A DNA stretch of 24,000 nt from Nitrososphaerota archaeon (GCA_021159365.1 JAGGRY010000036.1:63861-87860), one strand, 5' to 3'. Shown: positions 11,140 to 24,000, counted from the first letter of the stretch. Notes: generated by a model not told the origin, from the sequence alone. Numbers and translations: made by a program.

Positions 11140-12479
11140 TATTCAAGCTTCACCTCCATGCTGGGCATGCTTCTCTCGCCGAGTTCTCCGGCGATGGGCT
11201 TAAGCATGAGTTCCTCAACTTCCTCCAAGTTTCTCGCTCTAGCCAAGCACCAGCTAAGCTTGACGTATGCGGTTTCGGGAAGCATGTCGTCAAGCGCTAT
11301 CACTCCGGCCTTCAATAGATCTCTTCCAGTATCATAGACTCTCATATTCACTCTTCCGAAGATGCATTGAGACGTCATCCCGAAGAATATTCCATCATCA
11401 TGTAATTTCTTGATCGTCGGAATTATTCTCGTGCTCACATGCCCAAGCCCCGTCCCCTCCAAAACTATGCCTCTAACACCTTTCTCAACTAAGAACTCTA
11501 GGATATCTGCATCCATTCCGGGATAGAACTTTACCAGAGCTGCTTTGGACGAGAATCCCGGCTCAAATCTATATTCACGTGATCCTCTCTTGTTCAAGTT
11601 CTCAGAATTCAACTTAATCTTTCCATCCTTGACATAGGCTATTGGAGGCGAATTAACGGATCTAAATGCGTCTCTGCTACTCGTGTGAAGCTTCCTAACT
11701 CTAGTGCCTCTATGAACGGCCAACAAATCATCTGAATGCCAAGCATGCATTACCACGCAGACCTCGGCGAATGGAGCATGGCCAGCAACACGCGTTGCCG
11801 CTATCAGGTTTGTCGCTGCGTCGCTTGATGGTCTATCAGAGGATCTTTGAGCTCCCACGAAGACTATCGGTATCGGCGGTTTTTGGAGGGCGAAGCTTAA
11901 GGCTGCGGCCGAGTATCCCATCGTATCGGTTCCATGGGCTATGATCACGCCGTCAACTCCATCCTTGATCAATCTATCGACCTCTATGGCCATCCTATTC
12001 CAAAGCTCCGGAGTCATGTCTTCGCTGAAGATCGAGAACAGTATCTTTGCATCTATCTCTGCTATATTGGAGAGCTCTGGAACTATTGAGAGGAGATCTT
12101 CAGCGGTCAACGCGGGTCTAACGCCTCCGGTTCTATAGTCTATCCTGCTGGCTATCGTTCCACCCGTGCTCATAATCGTGACCTTTGGAAGACCTTCCTT
12201 GAACTTGGGCTTAGGCGGCGGAATGAATCTAGGCTTCTTCGCGGATGCGATCCTCTTAACCTTCACCTCACCCTCAACTCTTATCCCAACATTGTAGCCA
12301 TTTGGAAGCTTGATCACGATATAGTTTGGATCAGCGAGCTCATATCTCGCCATGAGGATTCCCCTATAGGTCTCATCTCTAACCTCAACCTCGATCTCAT
12401 CCCCGATCTCGACTCCGCTCTCCTTGAGAATCTCCCTAACCCTTCCAGAATATCCCTGAAGCCTATCACCTACGGCCAT
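11139..12479 (-). CDS. gatD: Glutamyl-tRNA(Gln) amidotransferase subunit D (asparaginase-like)
   Basis: 446 aa. N-terminal GatD-specific domain plus an L-asparaginase-type core (TGGTIAS...HGTDTM). Operon with gatE. Confidence 0.93.
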   Translation of the reverse strand: MAVGDRLQGYSGRVREILKESGVEIGDEIEVEVRDETYRGILMARYELADPNYIVIKLPNGYNVGIRVEGEVKVKRIASAKKPRFIPPPKPKFKEGLPKVTIMSTGGTIASRIDYRTGGVRPALTAEDLLSIVPELSNIAEIDAKILFSIFSEDMTPELWNRMAIEVDRLIKDGVDGVIIAHGTDTMGYSAAALSFALQKPPIPIVFVGAQRSSDRPSSDAATNLIAATRVAGHAPFAEVCVVMHAWHSDDLLAVHRGTRVRKLHTSSRDAFRSVNSPPIAYVKDGKIKLNSENLNKRGSREYRFEPGFSSKAALVKFYPGMDADILEFLVEKGVRGIVLEGTGLGHVSTRIIPTIKKLHDDGIFFGMTSQCIFGRVNMRVYDTGRDLLKAGVIALDDMLPETAYVKLSWCLARARNLEEVEELMLKPIAGELGERSMPSMEVKLE

Positions 12480-12504
12480 GTTCTATCAAGAGAGATTCAT
12501 CCCA

Positions 12505-12512
12505 GTATTAAG
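12505..12512 (-). promoter_or_regulatory. TATA-like element (CTTAATAC on the minus strand) for gatDE
   Basis: Located 25 nt upstream of the ATG at 12479. It is weaker than the other TATA boxes; an alternative AATAAGC lies 7 nt further upstream. Confidence 0.3.
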
Positions 12513-12595
12513 CTTATTATGCTGATTACGAAGAAAGTTCACTAAACATCATATCAAATAAACTGCGGATAATTCGCCGTAGAATTCTTCAAACA

Positions 12596-12603
12596 CTTTT
12601 AAG
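12596..12603 (+). promoter_or_regulatory. TATA box (CTTTTAAG) for the aminotransferase gene
   Basis: Located 25 nt upstream of the ATG at 12629, with no SD. Confidence 0.4.
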
Positions 12604-12628
12604 CAAGTCAATCAATAAAATCCCCTGC

Positions 12629-13828
12629 ATGTGTGGATATGAGGCTCCCAGAAGGATTGCGAATGTGAGCGCTGAAGCAGCCTTCGCGGTTTTGAAAATT
12701 GCGAAGAACGTTGAAAGAACGGGTAAGAGAGTCATCCATTTGGAGATAGGGGAGCCGGACTTTGACACTCCCAAACACATAAAGGACGCCGCCATGGAAG
12801 CTCTAAACAAGAACTTCACCCATTATACTCCAACCCTCGGAATCCCGGAGCTTAGAAAGGAGATAGCCGAGAGCATCAAGAGGGATTATGGTGTTGAGAT
12901 CGATTGGGAGAAGAATGTGGCAGTGACTACTGGATGTAAGCAGGCGATACTTGCGTCAACTTTGGCGGTAGTCGATGAGGGAGAAGAGGTGATCTATCCA
13001 AATCCAGGTTATCCAGAATATGAGGCTGCAGCATACTTTGCTGGGGGTAAACCTGTTCCCTATAGGCTCAGGCTCGAAGACGGTTTTAGGATGACTCCCG
13101 AAGGATTGGCTGAGCTCATAACTGCGAAGACGAAGCTCGTCGTATTGAATAGTCCAAATAATCCATGTGGAGTCGTGATGCCTGAGGAAGATGTCAAGGG
13201 CATCGTTGACCTCGCGGAAGACCATGGCTTCTACATACTCTCAGACGAGGTCTATCGTCCAATACTCTTCGACGGCTCAAAACATTACTCACCACTACAC
13301 GCTAAGAAAAACCTGGATAAGCTGATCATAGTTGACGGATTCTCGAAGAGATATGCGATGACGGGATGGAGGCTTGGATACGCTCTAGTTCCAGAGGAGA
13401 TCCTGCCACAAGTCTTCAAGCTCCTAAATGTCATGACCTCATGCCCGAATTCAATCTCTCAATACGCTGCTCTAGCGGCTCTCAGAGGTTCTCAGGAACC
13501 CGTCATGAATATGGTTAAGCAGTATTGGAGAAGGAGAGATGTAGTCGTGGAGGAGCTTTCAAAGCTCGAGAACATCAGGTTCGTGAGGCCTAAAGGAGCG
13601 TTCTATGCATTAGTGGATGTGAGCAAGGTCTTGAACAAGCTTAAGGTCAATTCTGAGGAGTTCGTCAAGATGTTGATAGAGAAGTATGGAGTCGCATTCC
13701 TCCATGGAACGGCTCTAGGCTCCTATGGTGAAGGATTCATAAGGATAAGCTTCGCCACATCTGAGGAAAACATAAGAGAAGGAATCAGGATACTCGGTAA
13801 AGCCATAGAAGAATTGTCTAAGTCTTAA
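12629..13828 (+). CDS. Class I PLP-dependent aminotransferase (aspartate aminotransferase-like)
   Basis: 399 aa with IGEPDFDTP, NSPNNPCG and the PLP-lysine context SKRYAMTGWRLGY. Confidence 0.9.
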   Translation: MCGYEAPRRIANVSAEAAFAVLKIAKNVERTGKRVIHLEIGEPDFDTPKHIKDAAMEALNKNFTHYTPTLGIPELRKEIAESIKRDYGVEIDWEKNVAVTTGCKQAILASTLAVVDEGEEVIYPNPGYPEYEAAAYFAGGKPVPYRLRLEDGFRMTPEGLAELITAKTKLVVLNSPNNPCGVVMPEEDVKGIVDLAEDHGFYILSDEVYRPILFDGSKHYSPLHAKKNLDKLIIVDGFSKRYAMTGWRLGYALVPEEILPQVFKLLNVMTSCPNSISQYAALAALRGSQEPVMNMVKQYWRRRDVVVEELSKLENIRFVRPKGAFYALVDVSKVLNKLKVNSEEFVKMLIEKYGVAFLHGTALGSYGEGFIRISFATSEENIREGIRILGKAIEELSKS

Positions 13829-14501
13829 TGGCCTCGAAGAGGACGAGTCTCCAACAAACCCTTCCCAAATGATCGTAAACATAGTCTGAATCCGGCAGCG
13901 ATTTAAGGTGGTTAAGTAATCTGCGAAGAATCTTCCCGAATGGATGGACTTGATAATCTAAGATCTTCGGGATGAAACCTCTCCCCAACAACGCTTGATA
14001 GGTTCTCCCTATGCCAACTAGGGAGATGACTGGCAGGATGAGTCTCCCATTCCTTCTTAGATGGCTTGGAGGCTCAACTAAAACCCTTACCGAGAAAAAC
14101 CTTCCAACAATACCTCCCCAAGTAAATCTCCGCAACTGAATTGGGGATGGAGTCATTGGGGGATTGCAGATTATCAGGTCGAATAACTCACCTCTTACGG
14201 GATTAAATAGGTCTCCAACCCTAAAATCTATCTCAACGCCGTTGATCTCAGCATTCCTTTTAGCGATCTTGATAGCTCTATCTGAGACATCTGTTGCGAC
14301 GACATTCCTCGCCCCAAGCTTCGATGCAAGTATCGCCAAGACCCCTGACCCGGTTCCTAGGTCGAGGACTCTTAAACCGTCTATCTCATGGAGATTCTCG
14401 GCTATAAGCCTCGTTGCAGCCGATGGCATATAGATTTTTCGATCCTTGATGAGCTTTATCTCGATTCCCTTAACCTTGAATGTCGTGATCTTCTCCACCA
14501 T
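13818..14501 (-). CDS. Class I SAM-dependent methyltransferase (HemK/Mtq2-like small MTase domain, NPPM motif)
   Basis: 227 aa. SAM-binding VLDLGTGSGVLAILASKLG, acidic loop VATDVS, and LIICNPPMTP (a variant of the (D/N)PPY motif). Its 3' end overlaps the aminotransferase 3' end by 11 bp. The substrate cannot be inferred. Confidence 0.75.
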   Translation of the reverse strand: MVEKITTFKVKGIEIKLIKDRKIYMPSAATRLIAENLHEIDGLRVLDLGTGSGVLAILASKLGARNVVATDVSDRAIKIAKRNAEINGVEIDFRVGDLFNPVRGELFDLIICNPPMTPSPIQLRRFTWGGIVGRFFSVRVLVEPPSHLRRNGRLILPVISLVGIGRTYQALLGRGFIPKILDYQVHPFGKILRRLLNHLKSLPDSDYVYDHLGRVCWRLVLFEAIKT

Positions 14502-14535
14502 TATCTCTAAAGGATAAATAGCCTCGGTTTATGAA

Positions 14536-15510
14536 ATGGTTATTGTGGAGCCGCCGACTCAGCCCATTGAGGGTTTTTATGTCAAGATAGAGGAGACGAT
14601 CATGGCCGTTAAAGGAGTCCTACAACCTCCGGGGAAAGTGATCGCTCTTCCAACCTACATACTGTTCAATGGAGGCTTTAAGAGAATTAGACGCTTCAAA
14701 GAGTCTTTAGATCATTTCATTAAGAGATATCCAGATTACTATAGTTGGTTTGACTTCGCTGGAAGAAAGTTGCCCGCCCTGCCTCTAAGCATCGTCGATG
14801 AAGTCTATAATCCACTATCCATGAAGCATGTCGGACATCTCTCGCCTGAAGCCGAAAAGCTTAGGAGAATATTAGTTGAGGAATCTGGAGTCGATGAAAG
14901 CTTTGTCGGGATAACTGGATCGATACTCCTTAAAACATATTCACCGAAATCCGATATAGATCTCATAGTATATGGAATTGAGAATGGGAAAAGGATATAT
15001 GAATCGCTGAAAGAGCTTAGGAGAAGAGGAGATTTAGGATGCTTGAAAGATGATTATGAGTTGAGAAAGTCGAGGCTGGATTCATCTTTGCCGTTAAAGA
15101 CTTGGATTGCCGTCGAGAGATCTAAGATCTTAACTGGAACATTTTCTGGAAAAATCTATACAGCGAAGATAGTTCCACTGCCATCTGAATATTGGGAGAG
15201 CTTAGATCAAGAATGCATAGAGATCGGATCAACAGGCTTCATAGGAGAAGTTATAGACGATAGATATTCAATTCTAACTCCGAACAGTTATTCTGTATTT
15301 GTGAGGAGGAAATTGTTCGGCGAGGTCCAGGAGGGCGAAATAGTTGAGGTCTTCTCGATGAGGAGTAGGTTTGCGGAAATGGCCTCGCGTGGAGACTGGG
15401 TGAAGGTTGTGGGAAGACTTGAGCTTGTCAAGCTCCATGGGAAGAAATGGAAAAGAGTATTCCTAGGAAATAATGAGGAAGACGTGATAATCTCACTCCA
15501 CTACATCTAA
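14536..15510 (+). CDS. Predicted Pol-beta-superfamily nucleotidyltransferase, tandem paralogue 1
   Basis: 324 aa with the NTase signature GITGSILLKTYSPKSDIDLIVYG (G-S ... D-x-D). The C-terminal third is beta-rich (EIVEVFSMRSRFAEMASRGDWVKVVGRLELVK). It aligns end to end with the downstream ORF. Confidence 0.7.
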   Translation: MVIVEPPTQPIEGFYVKIEETIMAVKGVLQPPGKVIALPTYILFNGGFKRIRRFKESLDHFIKRYPDYYSWFDFAGRKLPALPLSIVDEVYNPLSMKHVGHLSPEAEKLRRILVEESGVDESFVGITGSILLKTYSPKSDIDLIVYGIENGKRIYESLKELRRRGDLGCLKDDYELRKSRLDSSLPLKTWIAVERSKILTGTFSGKIYTAKIVPLPSEYWESLDQECIEIGSTGFIGEVIDDRYSILTPNSYSVFVRRKLFGEVQEGEIVEVFSMRSRFAEMASRGDWVKVVGRLELVKLHGKKWKRVFLGNNEEDVIISLHYI

Positions 15511-15529
15511 ATATGGATCCAGGGATCTA

Positions 15530-16546
15530 ATGGTTGAGTTGATAAGAGATCACGACTTCCTAGAAACAGCAGATTCATGGATATTCTGCGTCGTCGGAGA
15601 CATTCATCCACCAAATAGATTCTTCTCATACTTGAAGTATGTTCCAGGAACAGGGCCGTGGAGAAGAGAAGGAAAAAGCTTCTCAAGAGTGTTCTCAGAT
15701 TATTCGATGAATGAGTTCAAGAAAATATTAGAATACTTGAAGAAGGTTAAACCGGAATTCGTGGGGTATGACCCGATAATAGGAACTGAGATGTCTTCAG
15801 TTCCAATAGAGTTTGTCAAAAAACACTATAATTGCTTAGAGGGATTGCGTGAACTCATCAAGCGTGGGCCGAGAGATAAGTTGGAGAAACTCACGATTGC
15901 CCTCGTTGAGGAGATATGTGATCACGGGGGTCTCCGTGAAGATGACTTCGGGATAACTGGATCAATCCTCCTCCAAATACATCATGAGAGATCCGACATA
16001 GATCTAATAGTTTATGGGAGGAGAGAGTTTTGGAAGGCGATTGAGATTCTAGGTGAACTTGGCTATCTAGGAGTCAGATCTAGGGAACAAGCTCTGAGAA
16101 GCATGCTTAAACGTTATCCAATAACATTAAGCCACGCCTCAAATCTAGTCGATCGAATAAGGTATAGGGGAGTCTATCGGGGAGTGGAATTCTCAATACA
16201 TGGAGTCAGAAAGAATGAGGAAATTACCGAGGAATACTCTGATAAAATTTACCGAAAGATTGGATTGGCACACGCGATCCTTGAAATCGACGACGCATCT
16301 GATTCATGCTTCAATCCAGCCATTTACAAAGTTCATGGAAGCGCCGAGGTCGGCGGTAAAGAGTATCATGTTGAACAATTAATGTGTTATGATCTCACAT
16401 TTTCGGCAATGTTTGAGAGAGGGGATAGGATTGAGGCTTATGGGAAACTAGAATTTGTAGTGGATAAGATTCGTGACAAAAGATTTTACAGCCTATTAAT
16501 AGGATCTATTGAAGCAGCTGGGAGAGAATATGTCAGGCTAGTCTAG
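15530..16546 (+). CDS. Predicted Pol-beta-superfamily nucleotidyltransferase, tandem paralogue 2
   Basis: 338 aa with GITGSILLQIHHERSDIDLIVYG and a C-terminal beta-rich region (YHVEQLMCYDLTFSAMFERGDRIEAYGKLEFVVDK). It starts 19 nt after paralogue 1. Confidence 0.7.
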   Translation: MVELIRDHDFLETADSWIFCVVGDIHPPNRFFSYLKYVPGTGPWRREGKSFSRVFSDYSMNEFKKILEYLKKVKPEFVGYDPIIGTEMSSVPIEFVKKHYNCLEGLRELIKRGPRDKLEKLTIALVEEICDHGGLREDDFGITGSILLQIHHERSDIDLIVYGRREFWKAIEILGELGYLGVRSREQALRSMLKRYPITLSHASNLVDRIRYRGVYRGVEFSIHGVRKNEEITEEYSDKIYRKIGLAHAILEIDDASDSCFNPAIYKVHGSAEVGGKEYHVEQLMCYDLTFSAMFERGDRIEAYGKLEFVVDKIRDKRFYSLLIGSIEAAGREYVRLV

Positions 16547-18138
16547 GATCTTAAGATTTCCGTCACCACCTTCCTTATCTTTGACTGAATCCATAAGGGG
16601 GTCCATGGGACGAATATTCTGAGAAACCTCTGATCCAATGCATCTTTAACCACGTCTTCTTCTCCAACCTTAAGATATCCTTGAACGACATTTTTAGAGA
16701 ATCTATCAACCTCTCCTGAACTTAAGTAATGGGCAGTGTAGAATAACAATTCGCATAGATCCCAGGATTTCGAGTCTTCAAAAGAGCATTGTTCAAGGTC
16801 TATTAGGTATATTTTGCCATCGCTTCCGAAGATGAATGTGAATGGATTACAGTCCCCTATGCAGATTCCCTTTTCATGGACTTCCGCCAACGTCTTTCCC
16901 ATCCTGTATGAGATATCATCGAATATTCTCGGCTCATCGGCGTTCTTCAACGCTTTTAATCCATCGGCGCCATCTATGAATCTCTGAAAGATTATCTTCT
17001 TAGGCCAATTTATGTGGAGTATTTCAGCGGTGTTGAATCCAAGTTCGGAGAGTTTGTTTATGAAATAGATCTCGTTACTCATTCTAGATGAGGCCAAGAC
17101 CGAGAAGTTCTTCACACCTATAGCCCAAAGCCACGCCGCCACCCACTTAAAATCTGTCCAATTAAGATATTTCTTGACGAAGATCTTCTCTTCATGATCA
17201 TCAATCTTGAACGATGCAAAATAAGTTGAATTAAAGACGCTTCCAACCTTCCTTAACTTGACATCTATGGATCTAACTCCATAAGTCTCTCGAATAAAGT
17301 CCCTTATCCCCCTACTCATCGCTAAAGGTTGAGGTCCAATGGAGGTCTCCATGTAAAGCATCTTGCTCGGATCTGGGATCTTCACGGGGACTAAGACGTC
17401 GAGATCGAATCTAATGTTTCTAATGGCATCTAGTGGAGATGAGAAGCTGGCCGTTAGATAGAGTTTAAAGAAGTGTTCAAGTTCATCCGAAAATCTGTCA
17501 TAGACGGTTTTCCTCGACAAGACTTCATGGACGAATCGATCAGTTGGAGAATATCCTCCATGTCTTTCCTCGAGTATGCCTTGATCCACTAGATCCTTTA
17601 TCGCCTTTAGGAATCCATCCAAAACCATGTTGATCTCGCCTCTCGATCCTCTAAACATCTCCTTGACAAATCTCCTAGACGGCGGATAGATTGCTGTGAG
17701 CCTCCTGAGCTTATCATAGAGAAAGTATTCCGGCTTAATTATCAGCCTGGTCGAGGCCAATTTATGCTCTAAAATTACGTTTTGAAGAGATTCGACTATG
17801 ACGTGCCTCTTATACATCTTCTCAAGATCTTCTAAGAGCTTCTCATTGATTATGGGATAATATGGAAATAAGAAGCTATGCGCTATAATTCCCCCGAACT
17901 TTTCATCCGAGGCATCTTTCAAGACACTTTTCTCATCCGCCAGTATCACGAGATCCGCTCCCCTCTTCACGAGTCTGAACTGCTTAATTATGTCCGTTAT
18001 CGCAAGTATGATCGAAGAACCTCTCTCGATCAATGCACCGTGAACGCTGAGGGCCTTAACCGCTTCCACGCTAATCCCGATACGCTTTAGCTCCTCAATT
18101 ACTCTTTCACGCCGTTCATCTCCATCGAGGAATTGCAT
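16543..18138 (-). CDS. Protein with a C-terminal Bud32/RIO-like protein-kinase-fold domain and an uncharacterised ~300-aa N-terminal region
   Basis: 531 aa. The C-terminal part carries a beta3-Lys context KIFVKKY, a catalytic-loop-like HEKGICIGDCNPFTFIF (compare Bud32 H-x-D-L-T-T-S-N-F-I-F) and a DFG-equivalent IYLIDLEQ. I recognise no motif in residues 1-300. Confidence 0.6.
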   Translation of the reverse strand: MQFLDGDERRERVIEELKRIGISVEAVKALSVHGALIERGSSIILAITDIIKQFRLVKRGADLVILADEKSVLKDASDEKFGGIIAHSFLFPYYPIINEKLLEDLEKMYKRHVIVESLQNVILEHKLASTRLIIKPEYFLYDKLRRLTAIYPPSRRFVKEMFRGSRGEINMVLDGFLKAIKDLVDQGILEERHGGYSPTDRFVHEVLSRKTVYDRFSDELEHFFKLYLTASFSSPLDAIRNIRFDLDVLVPVKIPDPSKMLYMETSIGPQPLAMSRGIRDFIRETYGVRSIDVKLRKVGSVFNSTYFASFKIDDHEEKIFVKKYLNWTDFKWVAAWLWAIGVKNFSVLASSRMSNEIYFINKLSELGFNTAEILHINWPKKIIFQRFIDGADGLKALKNADEPRIFDDISYRMGKTLAEVHEKGICIGDCNPFTFIFGSDGKIYLIDLEQCSFEDSKSWDLCELLFYTAHYLSSGEVDRFSKNVVQGYLKVGEEDVVKDALDQRFLRIFVPWTPLWIQSKIRKVVTEILRS

Positions 18139-18237
18139 GACGTGTTATTGATATTAATCCGAGAATAAATATCCAAAATCAGCGTTTCTGAGATAATATT
18201 AAAGCAGGGAGATCCAAGTAGGGGAAATTTTATTGCC

Positions 18238-19596
18238 TTGAGAAGTTTAGAGATTTTGAGGAGAATGGATCCAGGAAAGCTTACAAGATTCATAGTCTCA
18301 AATGCACTGAAGCTTGGAGCAACAGATGTGGTCGCCGAGATCTACGTCGGTAGGGAGAGGAGGATAAAGTTCGCGAACAATGAGGTTGTAGTCTCGGAGG
18401 AGCGGGATGAGAGAACGGCTGAGATATTCGTCGCCATAAGGGAGAAGAGGGCCAGCATCTCGATCGACGATCTATCGATCCAAAGCATTAGAGAAGCGGT
18501 GAAGCAAGCGATCTCCCTAGCAAAGATGAGCGAGCCGGCCGAGACCTATGCCGAGCTTCCAAGAGGGCCATTCAAGTATGATAAGGATCTATTAAGGGCT
18601 GGGAAGGTCTCAGGAGACCCGGAGAAGCTAATAGATCATGTTGAAGCGGCTGTAAACGCGGCTCTAGCCGAAGGAGCTGAAAGAGCTGCTGGAACCCTAA
18701 TCTACTCAAGCGGCAAGACATGGCTCAGAACTAGTGGGAGAGCTTATGGAGTCGCGAATGAGGCCACCATAGAGATCTCGGTTAGAGCTCTCGCTTCTGA
18801 AGACGCCGCGGGCCACTTCGTCTCAATCGCTGCGGATGATAGGGATTTTGATCCAGAAGGAGCTGGAAAGAGAGCTGGAGAGATAGCTAAGATGGCCCTA
18901 AACCCAATTGAAGGCGAACCTGGAGAATATGAGGCCCTCTTAGGGCCGATGATCTTCGCCCACCTAGCCGAGCACGTTGGAGATGCTTCATCGGCTTTCT
19001 ACGTCGATGCTGGGCTATCTTTCTTAAAGGATAAGCTTGGCCAAGAGGTCTCATCAAAGATCTTCAGCCTCGTAGATGATCCTACGATTCCAAAGACCTA
19101 TGGATCAGCGCCCTTCGACGATGAAGGTGTTCCAACCAGGAGAAATGTCATCATTGATAGAGGGGTCTTGAAGACCTATCTACATAACTCGACGACCGCT
19201 AAGAAGTTTGGAGCTGAGACCACCGCCAACGCGGGGCTCATAGTCCCAACACCATTTAATCTAATAGTCGAGGGAGGGGATAAGAGCTTCGAGAAGCTGC
19301 TCTCAAGCATAGATGATGGAATCTATGTGACGAATGACTGGTATCTAAGATATCAAAACTATAGGACCGGAGACTTCTCAACGATTCCGAGAGACGGCTT
19401 ATTCAGGATAAAGAGGGGGAGCATAGAATCCTCGATAAAGGGGCTGAGAATAAGCGACAACATGTTAAGAATACTGAGCGGGATAAGAGAACTTGGAAGA
19501 GAAAGATATTGGATAAGCTGGTGGGAAGTAGAAACCCCGGTCTACGCACCACACGCAATAATAGAAAAAGTAAACTTCACCAAATCAACGATCTAA
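18238..19596 (+). CDS. TldD/PmbA-family protein (peptidase U62 family)
   Basis: 452 aa with the typical PmbA/TldE layout and C-terminal motifs (GIYVTNDWYLRYQNYRTGDFS, ETPVYAPHAII). I saw no HExxxH, so it looks more like PmbA/TldE than TldD. The track start is a TTG; the ATG at 18265 (MDPGKL...) is an alternative. Confidence 0.85.
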   Translation: MRSLEILRRMDPGKLTRFIVSNALKLGATDVVAEIYVGRERRIKFANNEVVVSEERDERTAEIFVAIREKRASISIDDLSIQSIREAVKQAISLAKMSEPAETYAELPRGPFKYDKDLLRAGKVSGDPEKLIDHVEAAVNAALAEGAERAAGTLIYSSGKTWLRTSGRAYGVANEATIEISVRALASEDAAGHFVSIAADDRDFDPEGAGKRAGEIAKMALNPIEGEPGEYEALLGPMIFAHLAEHVGDASSAFYVDAGLSFLKDKLGQEVSSKIFSLVDDPTIPKTYGSAPFDDEGVPTRRNVIIDRGVLKTYLHNSTTAKKFGAETTANAGLIVPTPFNLIVEGGDKSFEKLLSSIDDGIYVTNDWYLRYQNYRTGDFSTIPRDGLFRIKRGSIESSIKGLRISDNMLRILSGIRELGRERYWISWWEVETPVYAPHAIIEKVNFTKSTI

Positions 19597-19600
19597 AAAT

Positions 19601-19610
19601 AAATATAAAA
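19601..19610 (+). promoter_or_regulatory. TATA box (AAATATAAAA) for tRNA-Thr
   Basis: Ends 26 nt upstream of the mature tRNA 5' end at 19637. Confidence 0.5.
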
Positions 19611-19636
19611 CCAGCAAAAGCCCACTAAAGATAAAA

Positions 19637-19713
19637 GCCCCGGTAGCTCAGTCTGGTAGAGCACCGGCTTGGTAAGCCGGTGGTCCCGGGTTCAAAGCCC
19701 GGCCGGGGCTCCA
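19637..19713 (+). tRNA. tRNA-Thr (anticodon GGU), CCA encoded
   Basis: Manual cloverleaf: acceptor GCCCCGG/CCGGGGC; D arm GCTC-AGTCTGGTA-GAGC; anticodon arm CCGGC-TTGGTAA-GCCGG; variable TGGTC; T arm CCGGG-TTCAAAG-CCCGG; discriminator T; then CCA. Confidence 0.93.
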
Positions 19714-19853
19714 CCTAAACCTTAGCTGTCATCTCCAAGTATCTTCTCTCGTAGTATATCGGAACTCACATATTTACATAGATCCTTCGTATAGGATGAC
19801 CCTTGTGTTAAGATATTCTTCGTATAATCTGAGAACCTCCTTTTTCCCTCTCT

Positions 19854-20336
19854 CTACCTAAGTAAGGCTTTCATTAGTCTTCCACTATGATTATGGAATA
19901 ATATGATGCAATAATCCCAGTCGCCGCTAAGATATGCGAACGAGGCCTTGGCGAGAGCCATCTTGAACCTCGATCCGGCTGAATGACCTGCACCAGAATG
20001 ATCCAATTCTATCGCAATTCTCATTGGTTTTAAGATGGCGATATCAGGATAGACCCCCTCAGATCCAAACAGATTATACGGCCTTCTCCACGCTATTGGA
20101 GTACCTTGCCCCTCAACATAGACTGCCTCCTTAAGTCTACCCTCGGGAAATAATTGATTGTAAATTCTTCTCACGACGTCTCCAATAATCTTTCTCGCCA
20201 CCTTATCCCAAGTCTCTCCGCTCTCCTCCACCTTCTTGATTATTTTGTTAAAAACTTGCTCACGTGCTAGGCTAGTTTCCAAAAGATGGATGAACTTCTT
20301 CATCGCCTTCTCATAATGAATTTTTACCATTGTCAA
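19854..20336 (-). CDS. Hypothetical protein; possible PD-(D/E)xK (restriction-endonuclease-like) fold
   Basis: 160-aa ORF with a TATA-like GATATAAG about 22 nt upstream. YPDIAILKPMRIAIELDHSG resembles a PD...(D/E)xK core with the Lys position not conserved. The assignment is weak. Confidence 0.5.
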   Translation of the reverse strand: MTMVKIHYEKAMKKFIHLLETSLAREQVFNKIIKKVEESGETWDKVARKIIGDVVRRIYNQLFPEGRLKEAVYVEGQGTPIAWRRPYNLFGSEGVYPDIAILKPMRIAIELDHSGAGHSAGSRFKMALAKASFAYLSGDWDYCIILFHNHSGRLMKALLR

Positions 20337-20650
20337 TAGATCCCGACCCCACCTTATATCTTAATCTCATAAGCCATACCTTTTCACTACTATCTTCGCA
20401 AGAAGAATCCTATAAAAGAGCTTTAGATAGTAGTCAACGCGAAAAAGACATAAAGGCCGAGAATAGCTCGGGAACACCTAGGCTCCATCTTAAACTTCAA
20501 AGCCCTGTCACGCGATGTGGCTCTCAATCGTATGAAGTAGTCGACGATGGTCTAGACATGTATTTAGAGGGATTTCTGCTGAGTTATAGCTCTATAATTT
20601 TCTCTAGGATTGATGCTTCTCATCCTTTAGGCTCGTCATAGACGTAGGTG

Positions 20651-22255
20651 TTATAGCTTCTTCACTATTACAGGTAATACAGCTTTGGTGAGCTCGCGGG
20701 TGCTTCTAATATCGACTTTAGTGTATACTTTATCCACAATGTTGGGATCTCTCTCTACGCCGCTTATCCAACTTTCTAAGGCATCTATGGCGTGGGATGC
20801 TAGATTGCTGAATATTCTTGAGAGTAGCGGGTTCTTAATTCTTATCACCCTTCTAGCCAATGTCTTGGAGTTGACGGCGCTTAACTTGCAGCCGGCTATC
20901 ATGCAGTCGATCGCCTCTTGCGATAGCTTAGCGATGCATGAACTCGGGAAATTCATTTTCTCCTCTTCTATTATGGTTCCGCCCATGGGTATCAGTAGTA
21001 GTGGGAAGGTCCATCCTACGAATCCTTCACTCTTCAATCTGTCTATCAATTCCGTAGTCGCTATATAGTCGTCTGGCGTGGCGTCGGGGAAGCCGATGAT
21101 ATACGTGAAACACGGATACCAGTATGAGTCATTGAATAATTTTGCAGCCTCAACCACGATGCTGGGCCAATCCTCCGGCTTCCAAGGATACGCCTTTCCT
21201 CTAAAGTACTTAGCGACGATCCTAGGACTGCCGGATTCCAAGCCTACTTGAGGAAACGTCGGCTCAACGTCACTTAACCCCTGGATATCAGTTATGTACT
21301 TGACAACATCTTTCAAAACCAGAGCCGAGGCACAGGACACGTGTGAGAAACCTATTTTGTCGGGAGCCCCCCATCTTCTTGCCAAGTCCACAACCACTTT
21401 AAACAACTTCTTAACGGCGTCGGAGTTTAATTTAAGCCCATGGGCACCATATAACAGCACATCCTCCGTAACAAGTGATATGTTCTCGATACCATTCTTT
21501 AGGTTAAACTCTATCTCCTCTGTAATAATGTCCAGTGGGAAAGACCTAAAATGCCACATAGTTGGATTGCAAAAGTGGCATTTCCTAGGGCATCCGCGGG
21601 TGATCTGAACCAGCCCGTTTCTAGAAGGCGTTATTATCAATGGAATCTTATCCAATGGCGTGGGCTCTCCTTTAACATATCTCGGAACCTCCTCGCCGTT
21701 GAGCAGTTTCTTGACGATTATGGGGAAGGTTAGCTCGGCTTCCCCATCGAATAGCACGTCTATCCCATACTTATACTCATATCCCCTTAACTGCCAATTT
21801 CCCGGCCCGCCTACAATCACCTTAAACCCATACTTCTCCTTTAATGATCTTACAACGTTCATCAGCTTCTCAAACTCAAGTTCGGTGCAACTCTTGCCGC
21901 CACCGGCTAATGCCTTTAAGGTCCAAGTGACCGGCGCTAAACCCTTAGGATCAAGCACGTGTATTGCAACTATCTCCGTATCCCCGTCAATAGCCTTCGC
22001 AACCATGCGTGGGGGAACGATGACAACATCATCCCTACTGAAGCCTGCGGCGATCAGCGACGCCTCCACCTTACATATAGCGTAAGGAGCATACTTGGCC
22101 CTCAAACCCCTAGTAGGAACCTTGGGAGAAAGTATGTGGTATTGCACTAGCTCGGGTACAAGTCTATAAGGCAGGCATAGCCCGAAGCCGAAGAGATCAG
22201 CTCCATGATAATCGGTAAAGACTGCCCTATCAGCTGTTAAGATGATCTTAGCCAT
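20651..22255 (-). CDS. Radical SAM protein with an N-terminal B12-binding-like (Rossmann-type) domain
   Basis: 534 aa. The CxxxCxxC cluster motif sits in ITRGCPRKCHFCNPT. It is preceded by a B12-binding-like domain (EIVAIHVLDP..., FKVIVGGPG) and followed by a long C-terminal extension. Confidence 0.85.
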   Translation of the reverse strand: MAKIILTADRAVFTDYHGADLFGFGLCLPYRLVPELVQYHILSPKVPTRGLRAKYAPYAICKVEASLIAAGFSRDDVVIVPPRMVAKAIDGDTEIVAIHVLDPKGLAPVTWTLKALAGGGKSCTELEFEKLMNVVRSLKEKYGFKVIVGGPGNWQLRGYEYKYGIDVLFDGEAELTFPIIVKKLLNGEEVPRYVKGEPTPLDKIPLIITPSRNGLVQITRGCPRKCHFCNPTMWHFRSFPLDIITEEIEFNLKNGIENISLVTEDVLLYGAHGLKLNSDAVKKLFKVVVDLARRWGAPDKIGFSHVSCASALVLKDVVKYITDIQGLSDVEPTFPQVGLESGSPRIVAKYFRGKAYPWKPEDWPSIVVEAAKLFNDSYWYPCFTYIIGFPDATPDDYIATTELIDRLKSEGFVGWTFPLLLIPMGGTIIEEEKMNFPSSCIAKLSQEAIDCMIAGCKLSAVNSKTLARRVIRIKNPLLSRIFSNLASHAIDALESWISGVERDPNIVDKVYTKVDIRSTRELTKAVLPVIVKKL

Positions 22256-22564
22256 CCATAATTTAACTATCGTAATACTGCACGTTAAACTTTATCCACC
22301 CTAAAAACTGGGAGATGGTATGAGAATGTCTTAAGGGAGAAATATGATTTGTTCTGCTCTATTTTTAGATATCGTCTAACGGCTTCCTCTTAAGACCGCG
22401 TAACGCAATATTTAACCGCTTTGACGAAATGTTTCGAAGTCCTCTAGCGGTTCTCAAGGCTCGTCTAAGGAAGACTTAGGCTGAGGTAGAGTTTATTAGC
22501 GGAGCTTCAGAATGCGTTGGAGAGAAGGAATTGAATTTAATACCTGAAGGATCGATGTTATTAT

Positions 22565-22617
22565 GCCGGTGGTCCTGGATTCAAAGTCAAAACTCGGCCG
22601 GGACTTTTACCTAAAAG
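22565..22617 (+). repeat. Degenerate copy of the tRNA-Thr 3' half plus 3' flank (att-like direct repeat / tRNA fragment)
   Basis: GCCGGTGGTCCtGGaTTCAAAG[TCAAAA]CtCGGCCGGGaCT..ACCTAAA compared with tRNA positions 19674-19722, GCCGGTGGTCCCGGGTTCAAAGCCCGGCCGGGGCTCCACCTAAA. Matches are 20/22, 11/13 and 7/7 in three blocks, with a 6-nt insertion. Homology begins exactly at the 3' strand of the anticodon stem. Confidence 0.8.
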
Positions 22618-22711
22618 AGTCTACTTGTGCTGGAAACGTGTCAGATTTTTGCTCAGAAATCGTCCACCAGTTTAGGAGATGAGCCGCATATGTGTAAGCC
22701 TCACTCCAAGC

Positions 22712-22727
22712 TATGAGGATCCTCATA
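22712..22727. repeat. Perfect 16-bp palindrome TATGAGGATCCTCATA
   Basis: Read directly from the sequence. It lies in the ORF-free stretch about 95 bp beyond the tRNA fragment. Confidence 0.6.
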
Positions 22728-23168
22728 CTGAGCATAGTGGACTCAGCAATGATTCAGTCTCTTTCTCTAGCTGTCTTATGTCTATGATAATAGCGCTCCA
22801 TCACACTTGCTAAGGTCTATTCTATACTTCTACTTCCCAACCCCAATCCATGGAATGACCTCCACCCCAAGATCTGATAAGGTGTCCAAGAGATCTTAGA
22901 GAGGGCGAAGCAGGGGGTGAGCGAGGAGAAATGAGTGTTTAGAACTTTTATTTCTCTTTTTGAGATGAGTATGTTCAGGAACTTGGAAGGTTGATTAGAC
23001 CGTCCTTCATGGCGGGGCTACCTTCTATCTTGAATCGTGGGATGTAAAATCTACTTAAGTAGGATGAGCATATCTTGGATGGACGATGATTTGAGTCCGG
23101 CTTCTGAGCTTATGATGATGCTTGAAAGGGATGAGTCGATTATCTTTTTCACCTTTTAATTCTCATTT

Positions 23169-23573
23169 TTATGCGAATAGCTTCTTACATGTGCTTAGCA
23201 TAGATCCTTTGTAGTCGATCATGTCGAATACCTTATACGCCACTTCTTTGAATCCATTGGATTTTATGTCTTGTGGGTGGAAGACTGTTCTCAGGATTGT
23301 TGGATTGTAGTGCTCTAATGTGTCCATATAGTTTCTGTTAGCTGGTATTAAGAAGTATTCTCGCTCATTGATTCCCATCAGGTTTAGGAATTGATCAAGC
23401 CTCTCCACATATCCTTGGTTATAATTCCATGGATCTAGATCATGTATCTCGATGAAGCATTTTCCTTCCGCTCCTTCGGCACGCTCACCTATCATTATTC
23501 CATGAGAGTAGAATCCTACTGCGAATGCCGCCAAGCTCGTTAATCCCAGCTTAAGGACTTCCCTTCTCTTCAT
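23169..23573 (-). CDS. Small secreted/exported protein with a twin-arginine (Tat)-type signal peptide
   Basis: 134 aa. MKRREVLKLGLTSLAAFAVGF matches RRxFLK plus a hydrophobic core. I do not recognise the mature part. Confidence 0.6.
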   Translation of the reverse strand: MKRREVLKLGLTSLAAFAVGFYSHGIMIGERAEGAEGKCFIEIHDLDPWNYNQGYVERLDQFLNLMGINEREYFLIPANRNYMDTLEHYNPTILRTVFHPQDIKSNGFKEVAYKVFDMIDYKGSMLSTCKKLFA

Positions 23574-23661
23574 TACACTTATCTCGATCTTCTTAGGCTA
23601 AAAAGTAATACTTTTGCGTGGTGAGCCGTCACAAATAGATGTTCTTGAATCAAGTATTGTT

Positions 23662-23774
23662 CGCCGGGGGTGGGATTTGAACCCACGCGCCCCGCATGGG
23701 GCATCGGCTTACTCGATCTGACCAGCGGTTTATGATCTCGAGGCCGACCCTCTACCAGGCTAAGGCACCCCGGC
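23662..23774 (-). tRNA. tRNA-Ser (anticodon CGA) with a ~27-nt intron in the anticodon loop
   Basis: Minus strand: acceptor GCCGGGG/CCCCGGC; D arm CCTT-AGCCTGGTA-GAGG; anticodon stem TCGGC ... GCCGA; loop CTCGAG|intron|A; long variable arm TGCCCCATGCGGGGCGC; T arm GTGGG-TTCAAAT-CCCAC; discriminator G; no encoded CCA. 113 nt in total, about 86 nt after removing the intron (approximately 23710-23736, at or near canonical position 37/38). Confidence 0.85.
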
Positions 23775-23800
23775 GCCAATAATAGCATGGGTTCTTCAAG

Positions 23801-23808
23801 TATTAAAC
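23801..23808 (-). promoter_or_regulatory. TATA box (GTTTAATA on the minus strand) for tRNA-Ser
   Basis: Located 26 nt upstream of the tRNA 5' end at 23774. Confidence 0.45.
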
Positions 23809-24000
23809 TCCATCTCCATAAGCCATTACCTTGAAGACTTTTGGAATTTGAGAGAGTTAAAGAAGCCGCAGATCTGGTTATTCGGGTGATTCAGGGAAAG
23901 TCTGCGCCGTTGGGAAATATCCTGATTAAATATATAAATAATATGATAGGGATCAGGTGTTGATGAATCGACGTTTATTCAGAAAGCTGAGATATGCAAC

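Follow-up and report, generated by a model that had tools for sequence, protein, structure and literature searches.

Integrase-mediated "gene capture" at archaeal tRNA genes, involving SSV-type and pNOB8-type elements, was reportedly described by She et al. in Nature in 2001. Capture of this kind has since been treated for archaea (PMC7253208, PMC6563490), and for bacteria a review covers cis-mobilizable elements (CIMEs) together with the tandem accretion that occurs where integrative elements have their att sites (PMC5704250). In Thermococcales, integrases drive rearrangements between tRNA genes (Cossu et al. 2017, PMC5495485), and the tRNA-Thr(GGU) locus of Caldiarchaeum subterraneum displays structural heterogeneity, intron variation, and a fragment of the gene (Sugahara et al. 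2012, PMC3293823). The locus considered here belongs to the same order, Caldarchaeales, and concerns the same tRNA. It lies in the final 24 kb of contig C2 of a MAG (metagenome-assembled genome) from a Nitrososphaerota archaeon (G000; GCA_021159365.1, JAGGRY010000036.1:63861-87860; 1.25 Mb, 58 contigs, 89% complete), a stretch of 24,000 nucleotides hereafter called the window, in which an intact tRNA-Thr(GGU) gene is followed 2.9 kb downstream by a decayed copy of its own 3′ half. An earlier note on this DNA had taken the pair for the footprint of site-specific integration into the tRNA gene. The reading tentatively favored here is that the relic is the orphaned 3′ exon of a second tRNA-Thr(GGU) allele, left where two structural versions of one chromosomal island were joined.

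The parallel with Caldiarchaeum is close in several respects. There, too, a Thr fragment lies about 2 kb from the intact gene, and variants with more than 98% identical flanks differ in their introns and have breakpoints in tRNA-Thr (PMC3293823). Across the genomes and contigs compared here, the tRNA-Thr(GGU) gene is intron-less in G000, L090, and G007, G001, G002, L105, and L106 have an intron of 29 nt at position 37/38, and G004 and G008 have one of 15-16 nt; L022:7963-8068 is among the loci that show this variation. The two systems nevertheless differ. The Caldiarchaeum fragment is a 5′ one found upstream of the gene, from which it is separated by 1.87 kb of a putative transposable element (a/b) present in many copies, whereas here a 3′ exon lies downstream and the intervening 2.9 kb is single-copy chromosomal DNA ending in a tRNA-Ser promoter.

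The intact gene (19637-19713, + strand) is intron-less and is recognized by ARAGORN and by the Rfam tRNA model (69 bits). The relic (22565-22617, + strand) reproduces tRNA positions 39-76 and 7 nt of trailer (ACCTAAA) in direct orientation. The local alignment pairs 47 bases, of which 40 agree, and contains a single insertion of 6 nt. Its score of 44 stands 11 standard deviations above that of 300 Markov shuffles of the downstream 4.3 kb (20.0 ± 2.1, maximum 29). When the 32 tRNAs called by ARAGORN without the intron option were compared as possible sources, the adjacent tRNA-Thr(GGU) scored best (41, against 27 for the next and 18 for tRNA-Thr(CGU) and tRNA-Thr(UGU)). Of its seven substitutions, all but one are C>T or G>A, and the insertion is a tandem duplication of TCAAAG in the T loop.

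A second copy of the junction is provided by a Joint Genome Institute (JGI) contig of 2483 bp (L127), which derives from an independent assembly of another sample and is 99.0% identical to window 20324-22798. Its relic is fresher: it matches the tRNA throughout its first 22 nt, carries the TCAAAG duplication without error, and otherwise departs from the tRNA only by one C>T in the T stem and by TT instead of CC at positions 74-75. The latter positions, CC in the resident gene and TT in the relic, vary between lineages. The duplication, together with substitutions, disrupts the T stem in each of the two known copies, and the Rfam tRNA model does not match the relic. The two copies differ at 4-5 of 53 positions between strains whose overall identity is 99%, which documents the speed at which the relic erodes. 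Because L127 carries the same junction independently, the junction is not an assembly artefact; likewise, none of the 17-mers around it recurs anywhere in the G000 assembly. The claim of the earlier note that 22565-22617 is a mutated copy of the tRNA-Thr 3′ half thus holds: the relic is a genuine direct copy, is non-functional, and is eroding fast through C>T and G>A changes. A tandem duplication of the whole 2.9-kb unit was considered and ruled out, since the flank of the relic matches the tRNA trailer for only 7 nt.

To its left the relic abuts a tRNA-Ser(CGA) leader, here called U (22520-22564, + strand), an orphaned promoter with a TTTAATA box from which the TGGC that closes the native leader (4 nt) is missing. 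U runs straight into tRNA-Ser, with no relic between them, in six sister assemblies (G001, L104, L105, L102, L128/L129, and L091). The native leader ends TTATTATTGGC directly before the GCCGGGG of tRNA-Ser in the U copies of L102, G001, and L104 and in a second leader of G000, U prime; the leader of L105 has one substitution (TTATTATCGGC) and that of L091 is more diverged. In G000 and L127, by contrast, U ends TTATTAT and passes directly into GCCGGTGG of the tRNA-Thr fragment, and these are the only U copies without TGGC. Given that the TGGC form is found in every other context, the fusion of leader and relic is the derived state. The only tRNA-Ser(CGA) of G000 (23661-23775, − strand, with an intron) now stands 1.1 kb from the relic, inverted so that it points towards tRNA-Thr, behind U prime (23776-23820, − strand), which is complete, ending TGGC, and is about 75% identical to U by a count made from the printed sequences. 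The DNA upstream of U prime is unrelated to the radical SAM region. This orientation of tRNA-Ser is opposite to that in G001, L102, L104, L105, and L128, and gives the same convergent layout as in G007, a genome of genus g2.

Comparison with relatives drew on 76 genomes of the order Caldarchaeales, on additional fetched contigs (designated by L-numbers), and on the neighborhoods of pmbA and tRNA-Thr in 17 relatives. A PmbA/TldD-type metallopeptidase gene (pmbA, 18238-19596, + strand; Pfam PF19289, E 5e-65), syntenic in relatives, precedes tRNA-Thr(GGU) in genera g1, g2, and g3 and is the conserved left anchor of the locus. G001, of the same genus as G000, is collinear with window 11689-19733 and 20636-22564 and has lost by deletion the intervening segment that carries a 160-codon open reading frame (ORF), orf160; its homology stops exactly at 22564, where tRNA-Ser(CGA) stands on the + strand. 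The order of radical SAM upstream region, leader, and tRNA-Ser recurs in L104 and L105 (JGI contigs of a G001-like species), L091, L102, and L128/L129. Identity across this module is 98-99% in L090, L102, and L128/129 and 82-86% in G001 and L104, and the radical SAM enzyme of L091 is 78% identical at the protein level. L090 independently shows pmbA, tRNA-Thr, orf160, and the radical SAM gene at 98.6%. Near-identical variants thus co-exist, with G000 and L127 on one side and L102, L128, and L129 on the other sharing the module at 98-99%. Because six assemblies keep the radical SAM region ending in the leader that drives tRNA-Ser, the apparent insert is a chromosomal module and not the remnant of a virus or plasmid.

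To the right of the relic the picture changes. A stretch of 365 bp free of ORFs (22618-22982) has no homologue in the 76 genomes or in the fetched contigs except L127. It may represent the DNA that originally lay downstream of the tRNA-Thr allele from which the relic derives. Beyond it, a block of tRNA-Ser, a DUF2334-family gene, and a small RNA gene is inverted between the two strain types and is 89-96% identical to that of L102. The difference between this figure and the 98-99% of the module, together with the roughly 75% identity of U prime to U, indicates that block and module have different histories. In G007, pmbA and tRNA-Thr are followed by two unrelated genes and then by tRNA-Ser(CGA) pointing back, without a radical SAM gene.

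These observations can be accommodated by a strain-variable island bounded by tRNA-Thr(GGU) and tRNA-Ser(CGA). Its first version, seen in G001, L104, L105, L102, and L128/129, runs from pmbA through tRNA-Thr, an optional orf188 or orf160, the radical SAM gene, and the tRNA-Ser leader to a tRNA-Ser pointing away. A second version, postulated here and resembling G007, would run from pmbA through tRNA-Thr, its trailer and the 365 bp, the small RNA gene, and the DUF2334 gene to a tRNA-Ser pointing back, with a leader of its own followed by surface-protein genes. G000 would then follow version 1 to 4 nt before tRNA-Ser and version 2 from tRNA-Thr position 39 onward. The route favored, as the simplest single event to give this structure, is a recombination between the two haplotypes by one homologous crossover in shared DNA on the left and one illegitimate join on the right, in which the 5′ edge of the version-1 tRNA-Ser would have been joined to position 38/39 of the version-2 tRNA-Thr. 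An equivalent outcome might be reached by Campbell-type insertion of a circularized segment, extending from Thr(39-76) to the leader, through 45 nt of tRNA homology, and a co-resident integrase possibly helped. Viewed from version 2, a 2.9-kb module of tRNA 3′ half, trailer, orf160, radical SAM gene, and tRNA-Ser promoter would have been inserted into tRNA-Thr.

Several observations weigh against this account. Version 2 without the module is absent from all genomes and contigs available, and the one metagenome scan made, using a pattern of 22 nt for the junction, yielded nothing beyond a chance match of 23 nt. The join lacks clean microhomology: GCCGG begins both tRNA-Ser (positions 1-5) and the relic, but a join there would keep the missing TGGC. 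Further, the right boundary of the relic coincides with the right boundary of the core used by an integrase element at this tRNA, which fits an integrase-made site equally well. Among other candidate explanations of the arrangement, a simple inversion between two tRNA-Ser leaders was rejected, because these share only about 75% identity, the outer flanks of the block are different, and the loss of TGGC would go unexplained. By eye, a decayed Thr relic seemed to be present in the tRNA-Ser-to-b spacer of G001 and G002 as well, but the similarity did not rise above a shuffled null and the candidate was dropped.

The content of the interval matches what the earlier note had described: orf160, a radical SAM gene of 534 codons, non-coding gaps of 314 and 309 bp, and no recombinase domain in any ORF of 19714-22564 in searches of Pfam, NCBIfam, and PHROGs. 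The product of orf160 (19854-20336, − strand; 160 amino acids) is a C-terminally truncated, frameshifted member of a metagenomic family of about 170-190 amino acids, without a match in Pfam, NCBIfam, PHROGs, or PADLOC. The family has an invariant PD...ExD...K-type core, of which the conserved D98, E110, D112, and K125/K130 are present. A full-length homologue, orf188 (188 amino acids, 91% identical), occurs in L104-L106, and relative to it orf160 has lost its last ~28 residues through indels; among 41 relatives orf160 is unique to G000. An AlphaFold model of the full-length homologue has a predicted local distance difference test score (pLDDT) of 90, and the Foldseek matches of that model, enriched for XPF, Mus81, XisH, Card1, and SgrAI folds, are weak (E >= 0.02, template modeling score about 0.3), so that a PD-(D/E)xK nuclease with a restriction-endonuclease-like fold is no more than a candidate assignment. 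orf160 is a decaying gene and not a recombinase.

The radical SAM gene (20651-22255, − strand) encodes an enzyme of the B12-binding type (Pfam PF04055; NCBIfam TIGR04013 at 72 bits, below the cut-off), with generic B12-type matches only and remote nearest solved structures. Within the family, close orthologues occur only in G000, G001, G015, and G045. A paralogue of about 37% identity occurs in every searched family genome with a full-length match, G000 included, and the gene is consequently an accessory extra copy. In genus g2 it occupies a different locus, whose adjoining DNA is homologous to contig C4, and homologues of 59-79% identity are found in Methanomethylicota, Nitrososphaerales, and Desulfurococcales bins.

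The earlier note's proposal of a stranded cargo remnant or non-autonomous element is supported only in part. A virus or plasmid origin of the cargo was rejected, as neither gene has relatives in IMG/VR (searched with an orf188 profile and the exact tRNA core), PLSDB, or INPHARED, and PHROGs likewise yielded no match for the ORFs of the interval. Its composition is unremarkable (tetranucleotide distance at the 89th percentile, ordinary GC), and no multi-copy sequence is present in it. An empty site, in which tRNA-Thr would be followed directly by the distal flank, appears in none of the 17 neighborhoods, the 76 genomes, or the fetched contigs; instead, relatives keep the radical SAM gene beside the tRNA. 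The possibility raised in the earlier note as telling against its own view, that the radical SAM gene is simply conserved synteny, largely proves true at the level of the genus, although the cargo is nonetheless accessory and patchy. On this distribution, both cargo genes are accessory and patchily distributed and have moved within the family, with nothing to mark them as of virus or plasmid origin.

Classical site-specific integration is the likeliest of the alternatives, improbable as it is on balance. Integrase elements do use this tRNA in sibling strains. L128/L129 are 98.6% identical to window 19698-22564, with homology beginning at 19698, inside the 3′ end of the tRNA, where they carry a 22-nt core from the tRNA-Thr 3′ end; immediately to the left stand an arm of 26 nt and the gene for a tyrosine integrase, cut off by the contig end (L128:2-778, − strand, and L129; PF00589, 34.5 bits). 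An integrase 92% identical to it (PF00589, 61.7 bits), with the same arm, is found in G019, of genus g4, within a 3.7-kb element (C35 = L137:11808-15601) that occupies tRNA-Thr(CGU) and also encodes a ParE-like toxin. The attL and attR of the G019 element form a clean direct repeat of 23-25 nt, comprising the tRNA 3′ end and about 10 nt of trailer. A family of small integrative elements thus targets the 3′ ends of tRNA-Thr genes. In G000 the equivalent of the core (19698-19719, + strand) comprises the last 16 nt of tRNA-Thr and 6 nt of trailer and equals that of the L128/L129 element, so that G000 represents an unoccupied site for a real tRNA-Thr-targeting integrase element.

Under such integration, the attP of an element that encoded an integrase or was mobilized in trans, carrying tRNA-Thr positions 38-76, would have recombined with the tRNA gene, the relic would be attR, and the recombinase with most of the element's genes would later have been lost, leaving either captured genes or a non-autonomous element of the CIME kind. 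The proposal suits the extent and direct orientation of the repeat and its size, which is typical of archaeal att sites, as well as the shared right edge of core and relic; the cargo genes are accessory and occupy a different locus in g2, and the module now lies between two core copies, from which it could in principle be excised in trans. Against it stands the nature of the "arm" next to the relic: this is the tRNA-Ser leader of the chromosome, in the same order as in six assemblies where it drives tRNA-Ser, and that arrangement is ancestral. The known integrase element has a core of only 22-25 nt and a different arm. Where an attR would have the element arm, as comparison with the arms of L128 and G019 makes plain, the relic carries tRNA positions 39-60; it therefore has the appearance of a real tRNA-Thr gene's back half, with trailer and flank of its own, the front half having been replaced. 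No PF00589 match, not even a XerA-type recombinase, was found in the 89%-complete G000 assembly, and neither an empty site, a virus or plasmid homologue, nor a composition signal lends support. Hence the footprint described by the earlier note stands as regards a true direct repeat of a tRNA 3′ half at a tRNA that integrases use, but not as regards its right end, which is a tRNA-Ser leader and no element end.

The same considerations place the locus relative to described systems. It resembles archaeal gene capture in that genes lacking a recombinase are enclosed between an intact tRNA and a downstream direct repeat of the tRNA's 3′ part, with an integrase element at the same site in siblings. 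It differs in having no integrase, split or whole, no empty site, and a distal arm that is a host tRNA-Ser leader. Similarly, the arrangement shares with CIMEs (PMC5704250) genes devoid of recombination functions between two att-like cores, beside a site that integrase elements use in other strains, and mobilization in trans is possible in principle. Unlike CIMEs, however, it is archaeal, the tRNA half that forms its distal "att" exceeds the known core in length and is already decaying, and its mobility is predicted at most.

A templated insertion is a less probable explanation. It would hold that a template switch during replication or repair at the heavily transcribed tRNA-Ser gene copied about 50 nt of tRNA-Thr, 2.9 kb behind, and resumed elsewhere, inverting the tRNA-Ser block, so that nothing was ever inserted into tRNA-Thr. 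The copy is indeed short, has a nearby source, and sits exactly at the breakpoint of the block that is inverted relative to near-identical strains; GCCGG is present at both partners, and in L127 the copy has hardly diverged from the resident gene. Such an event leaves unexplained U prime, the 365 bp of orphan DNA, and an extra 4.3 kb of surface-protein genes. The TT in place of CC at positions 74-75 is already present in the freshest copy, and it would have to be coincidence both that the copy is in direct orientation and that it stops exactly at the att-core boundary.

Very improbable is a split tRNA, in which a promoter-equipped tRNA-Thr 3′-half gene once worked with a separate 5′ half. A tRNA-type leader does stand directly before a fragment that starts at the canonical 37/38 intron or split position, where relatives have an intron, but the T stem is broken in both copies, Rfam finds no match, the promoter is demonstrably that of tRNA-Ser, an intact tRNA-Thr(GGU) is nearby, and a blastn-short scan of the genome, of low sensitivity, returned no 5′-half tRNA relics. 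Finally, an assembly chimera or chance similarity, which a metagenome bin of 58 contigs and a window ending at a contig end might invite, is scarcely credible given the same junction in a second assembly from another sample, the absence of any repeated 17-mer, and a score 11 standard deviations above the null.

The orphaned-exon reading places the relic within a wider pattern of variation at tRNA genes in this population. In G001-like strains (L104-L106) a 1.9-kb cassette of three genes directly follows tRNA-Thr(GGU) (L106:1347-2968), bounded by GGGCTCTACTTAAA and GGGCTCTACCAAAA, to both of which the single G000 copy aligns; the 14-nt stretch at 19706-19719 is the one found duplicated around this cassette. 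Its proteins have 134, 147, and 269 amino acids, of which only the 147-residue protein has a significant Pfam match, to a winged helix. The 269-residue protein matches PADLOC candidate defense family PDC-S05 (E 1.4e-17). That it might correspond to the Caldiarchaeum "b" recombinase was rejected as far as testable, since the L106 protein has only 2 matches in the 76 genomes and is nowhere multi-copy. Larger rearrangements separate G000 from G001 and G002, with breakpoints at tRNA-Thr(CGU), tRNA-Thr(UGU), and tRNA-Ser(CGA) (G000 C2:39996-40173 and C35:8569-10705; L022:10136-20000; L075; L087; L088). A block of more than 10 kb that follows tRNA-Ser(CGA) in G001 and G002 follows tRNA-Thr(CGU) in G000, the block that follows tRNA-Thr(CGU/UGU) in G001/G002 follows tRNA-Thr(UGU) in G000, and one shared context carries the CGU tRNA in G001 and the UGU tRNA in G002. 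As in Thermococcales (PMC5495485), close genomes therefore differ by inversions and translocations with breakpoints at tRNA genes, here Thr(GGU), Thr(CGU/UGU), and Ser(CGA). In contrast to Thermococcales, no causative integrase is present in G000, and the junction does not lie between two homologous tRNA copies. The integrase element, the cassette, and these rearrangements are three independent lines of evidence that make tRNA-Thr(GGU) a genuine integration hotspot.

A scan for further tRNA relics was conducted by Smith-Waterman alignment, blastn-short being too insensitive and missing even the present relic. A 27-nt copy of the tRNA-Lys(UUU) 3′ end is found on C29 (15892-15918; L115), intergenic and beside a C-terminal fragment of MCM at the contig end; it may be another border of an integrated element. 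On C34 (7284-7316; L114) a 33-nt stretch is identical at 29 of 33 positions to the 3′ part of tRNA-Val(UAC), within the 5′ region of a gene for a PilB/T2SSE-type ATPase. On C1 (about 91560-91660) there is a tRNA-like sequence that ARAGORN does not call even with the intron option, and it probably has non-canonical introns.

The right-hand block contains two further features. A C/D-box-like small RNA gene of 57 nt (23082-23138, + strand), for which Rfam has no match, is conserved in genus g2, with 87-97% identity in six genomes (lowest in G015) and three weaker, shorter matches in two g5 genomes. In four g2 loci (L121-L124) it lies 45-60 nt from tRNA-Lys(UUU), whereas here it is near tRNA-Ser(CGA). 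Next to it, orf134 (23169-23573, − strand) is, by comparison with relatives, a secreted DUF2334-family gene with an internal in-frame deletion of 384 bp. The gene is a pseudogene in both strain types, by this deletion here and by a frameshift in L102/L128 (L102:1342-2139), and is full length (about 265 amino acids) elsewhere. The window end (23898-24000, + strand) overlaps the reverse complement of the end of contig C39 at 99% identity, and the locus accordingly continues into two surface-protein genes, one of at least 399 codons, which runs off the C39 end, and one for an 856-residue CARDB protein, and then into a gene of the metallo-β-lactamase (MBL) fold. In L102/L128 this MBL-fold gene adjoins the small block of tRNA-Ser, DUF2334 pseudogene, and small RNA, directly abutting the Y2 block (window 22983-23318).

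Several of the contigs that inform the comparison are short. L090 (QMXE01000182.1) is filed under a "Bathyarchaeota" bin and L102 (QMUP01000139.1) under a genus-g2 Wolframiiraptor bin; given their 98-99% identity to G000, both are probably mis-binned in their source MAGs. The g2 bin that holds L102 has a radical SAM orthologue of its own (76% identical) elsewhere (L092).

Recombination scars at tRNA genes and gene capture are known in archaea; what is particular here is the fusion of a tRNA-Thr 3′ exon to a tRNA-Ser promoter that has been orphaned. Because several strain variants co-exist, the locus provides a well-resolved natural case of recombination concentrated at a tRNA gene in Caldarchaeales that are uncultivated, hydrothermal, and of a Wolframiiraptor-like family, and a caution that a direct repeat of a tRNA half is, on its own, insufficient evidence of foreign cargo. 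It is conceivable, if rather improbable, that the fusion of a leader to the Thr 3′ exon at 37/38 catches in the act the origin of promoter-equipped half genes and tRNA fragments in Caldarchaeales, and that recombination at tRNA-Thr, with or without an integrase acting in trans, might shuffle chromosomal segments as non-autonomous cassettes. Within this population, the same tRNA-Thr hosts an integrase element, a candidate defense cassette, or a reshuffled chromosomal module, depending on the strain.

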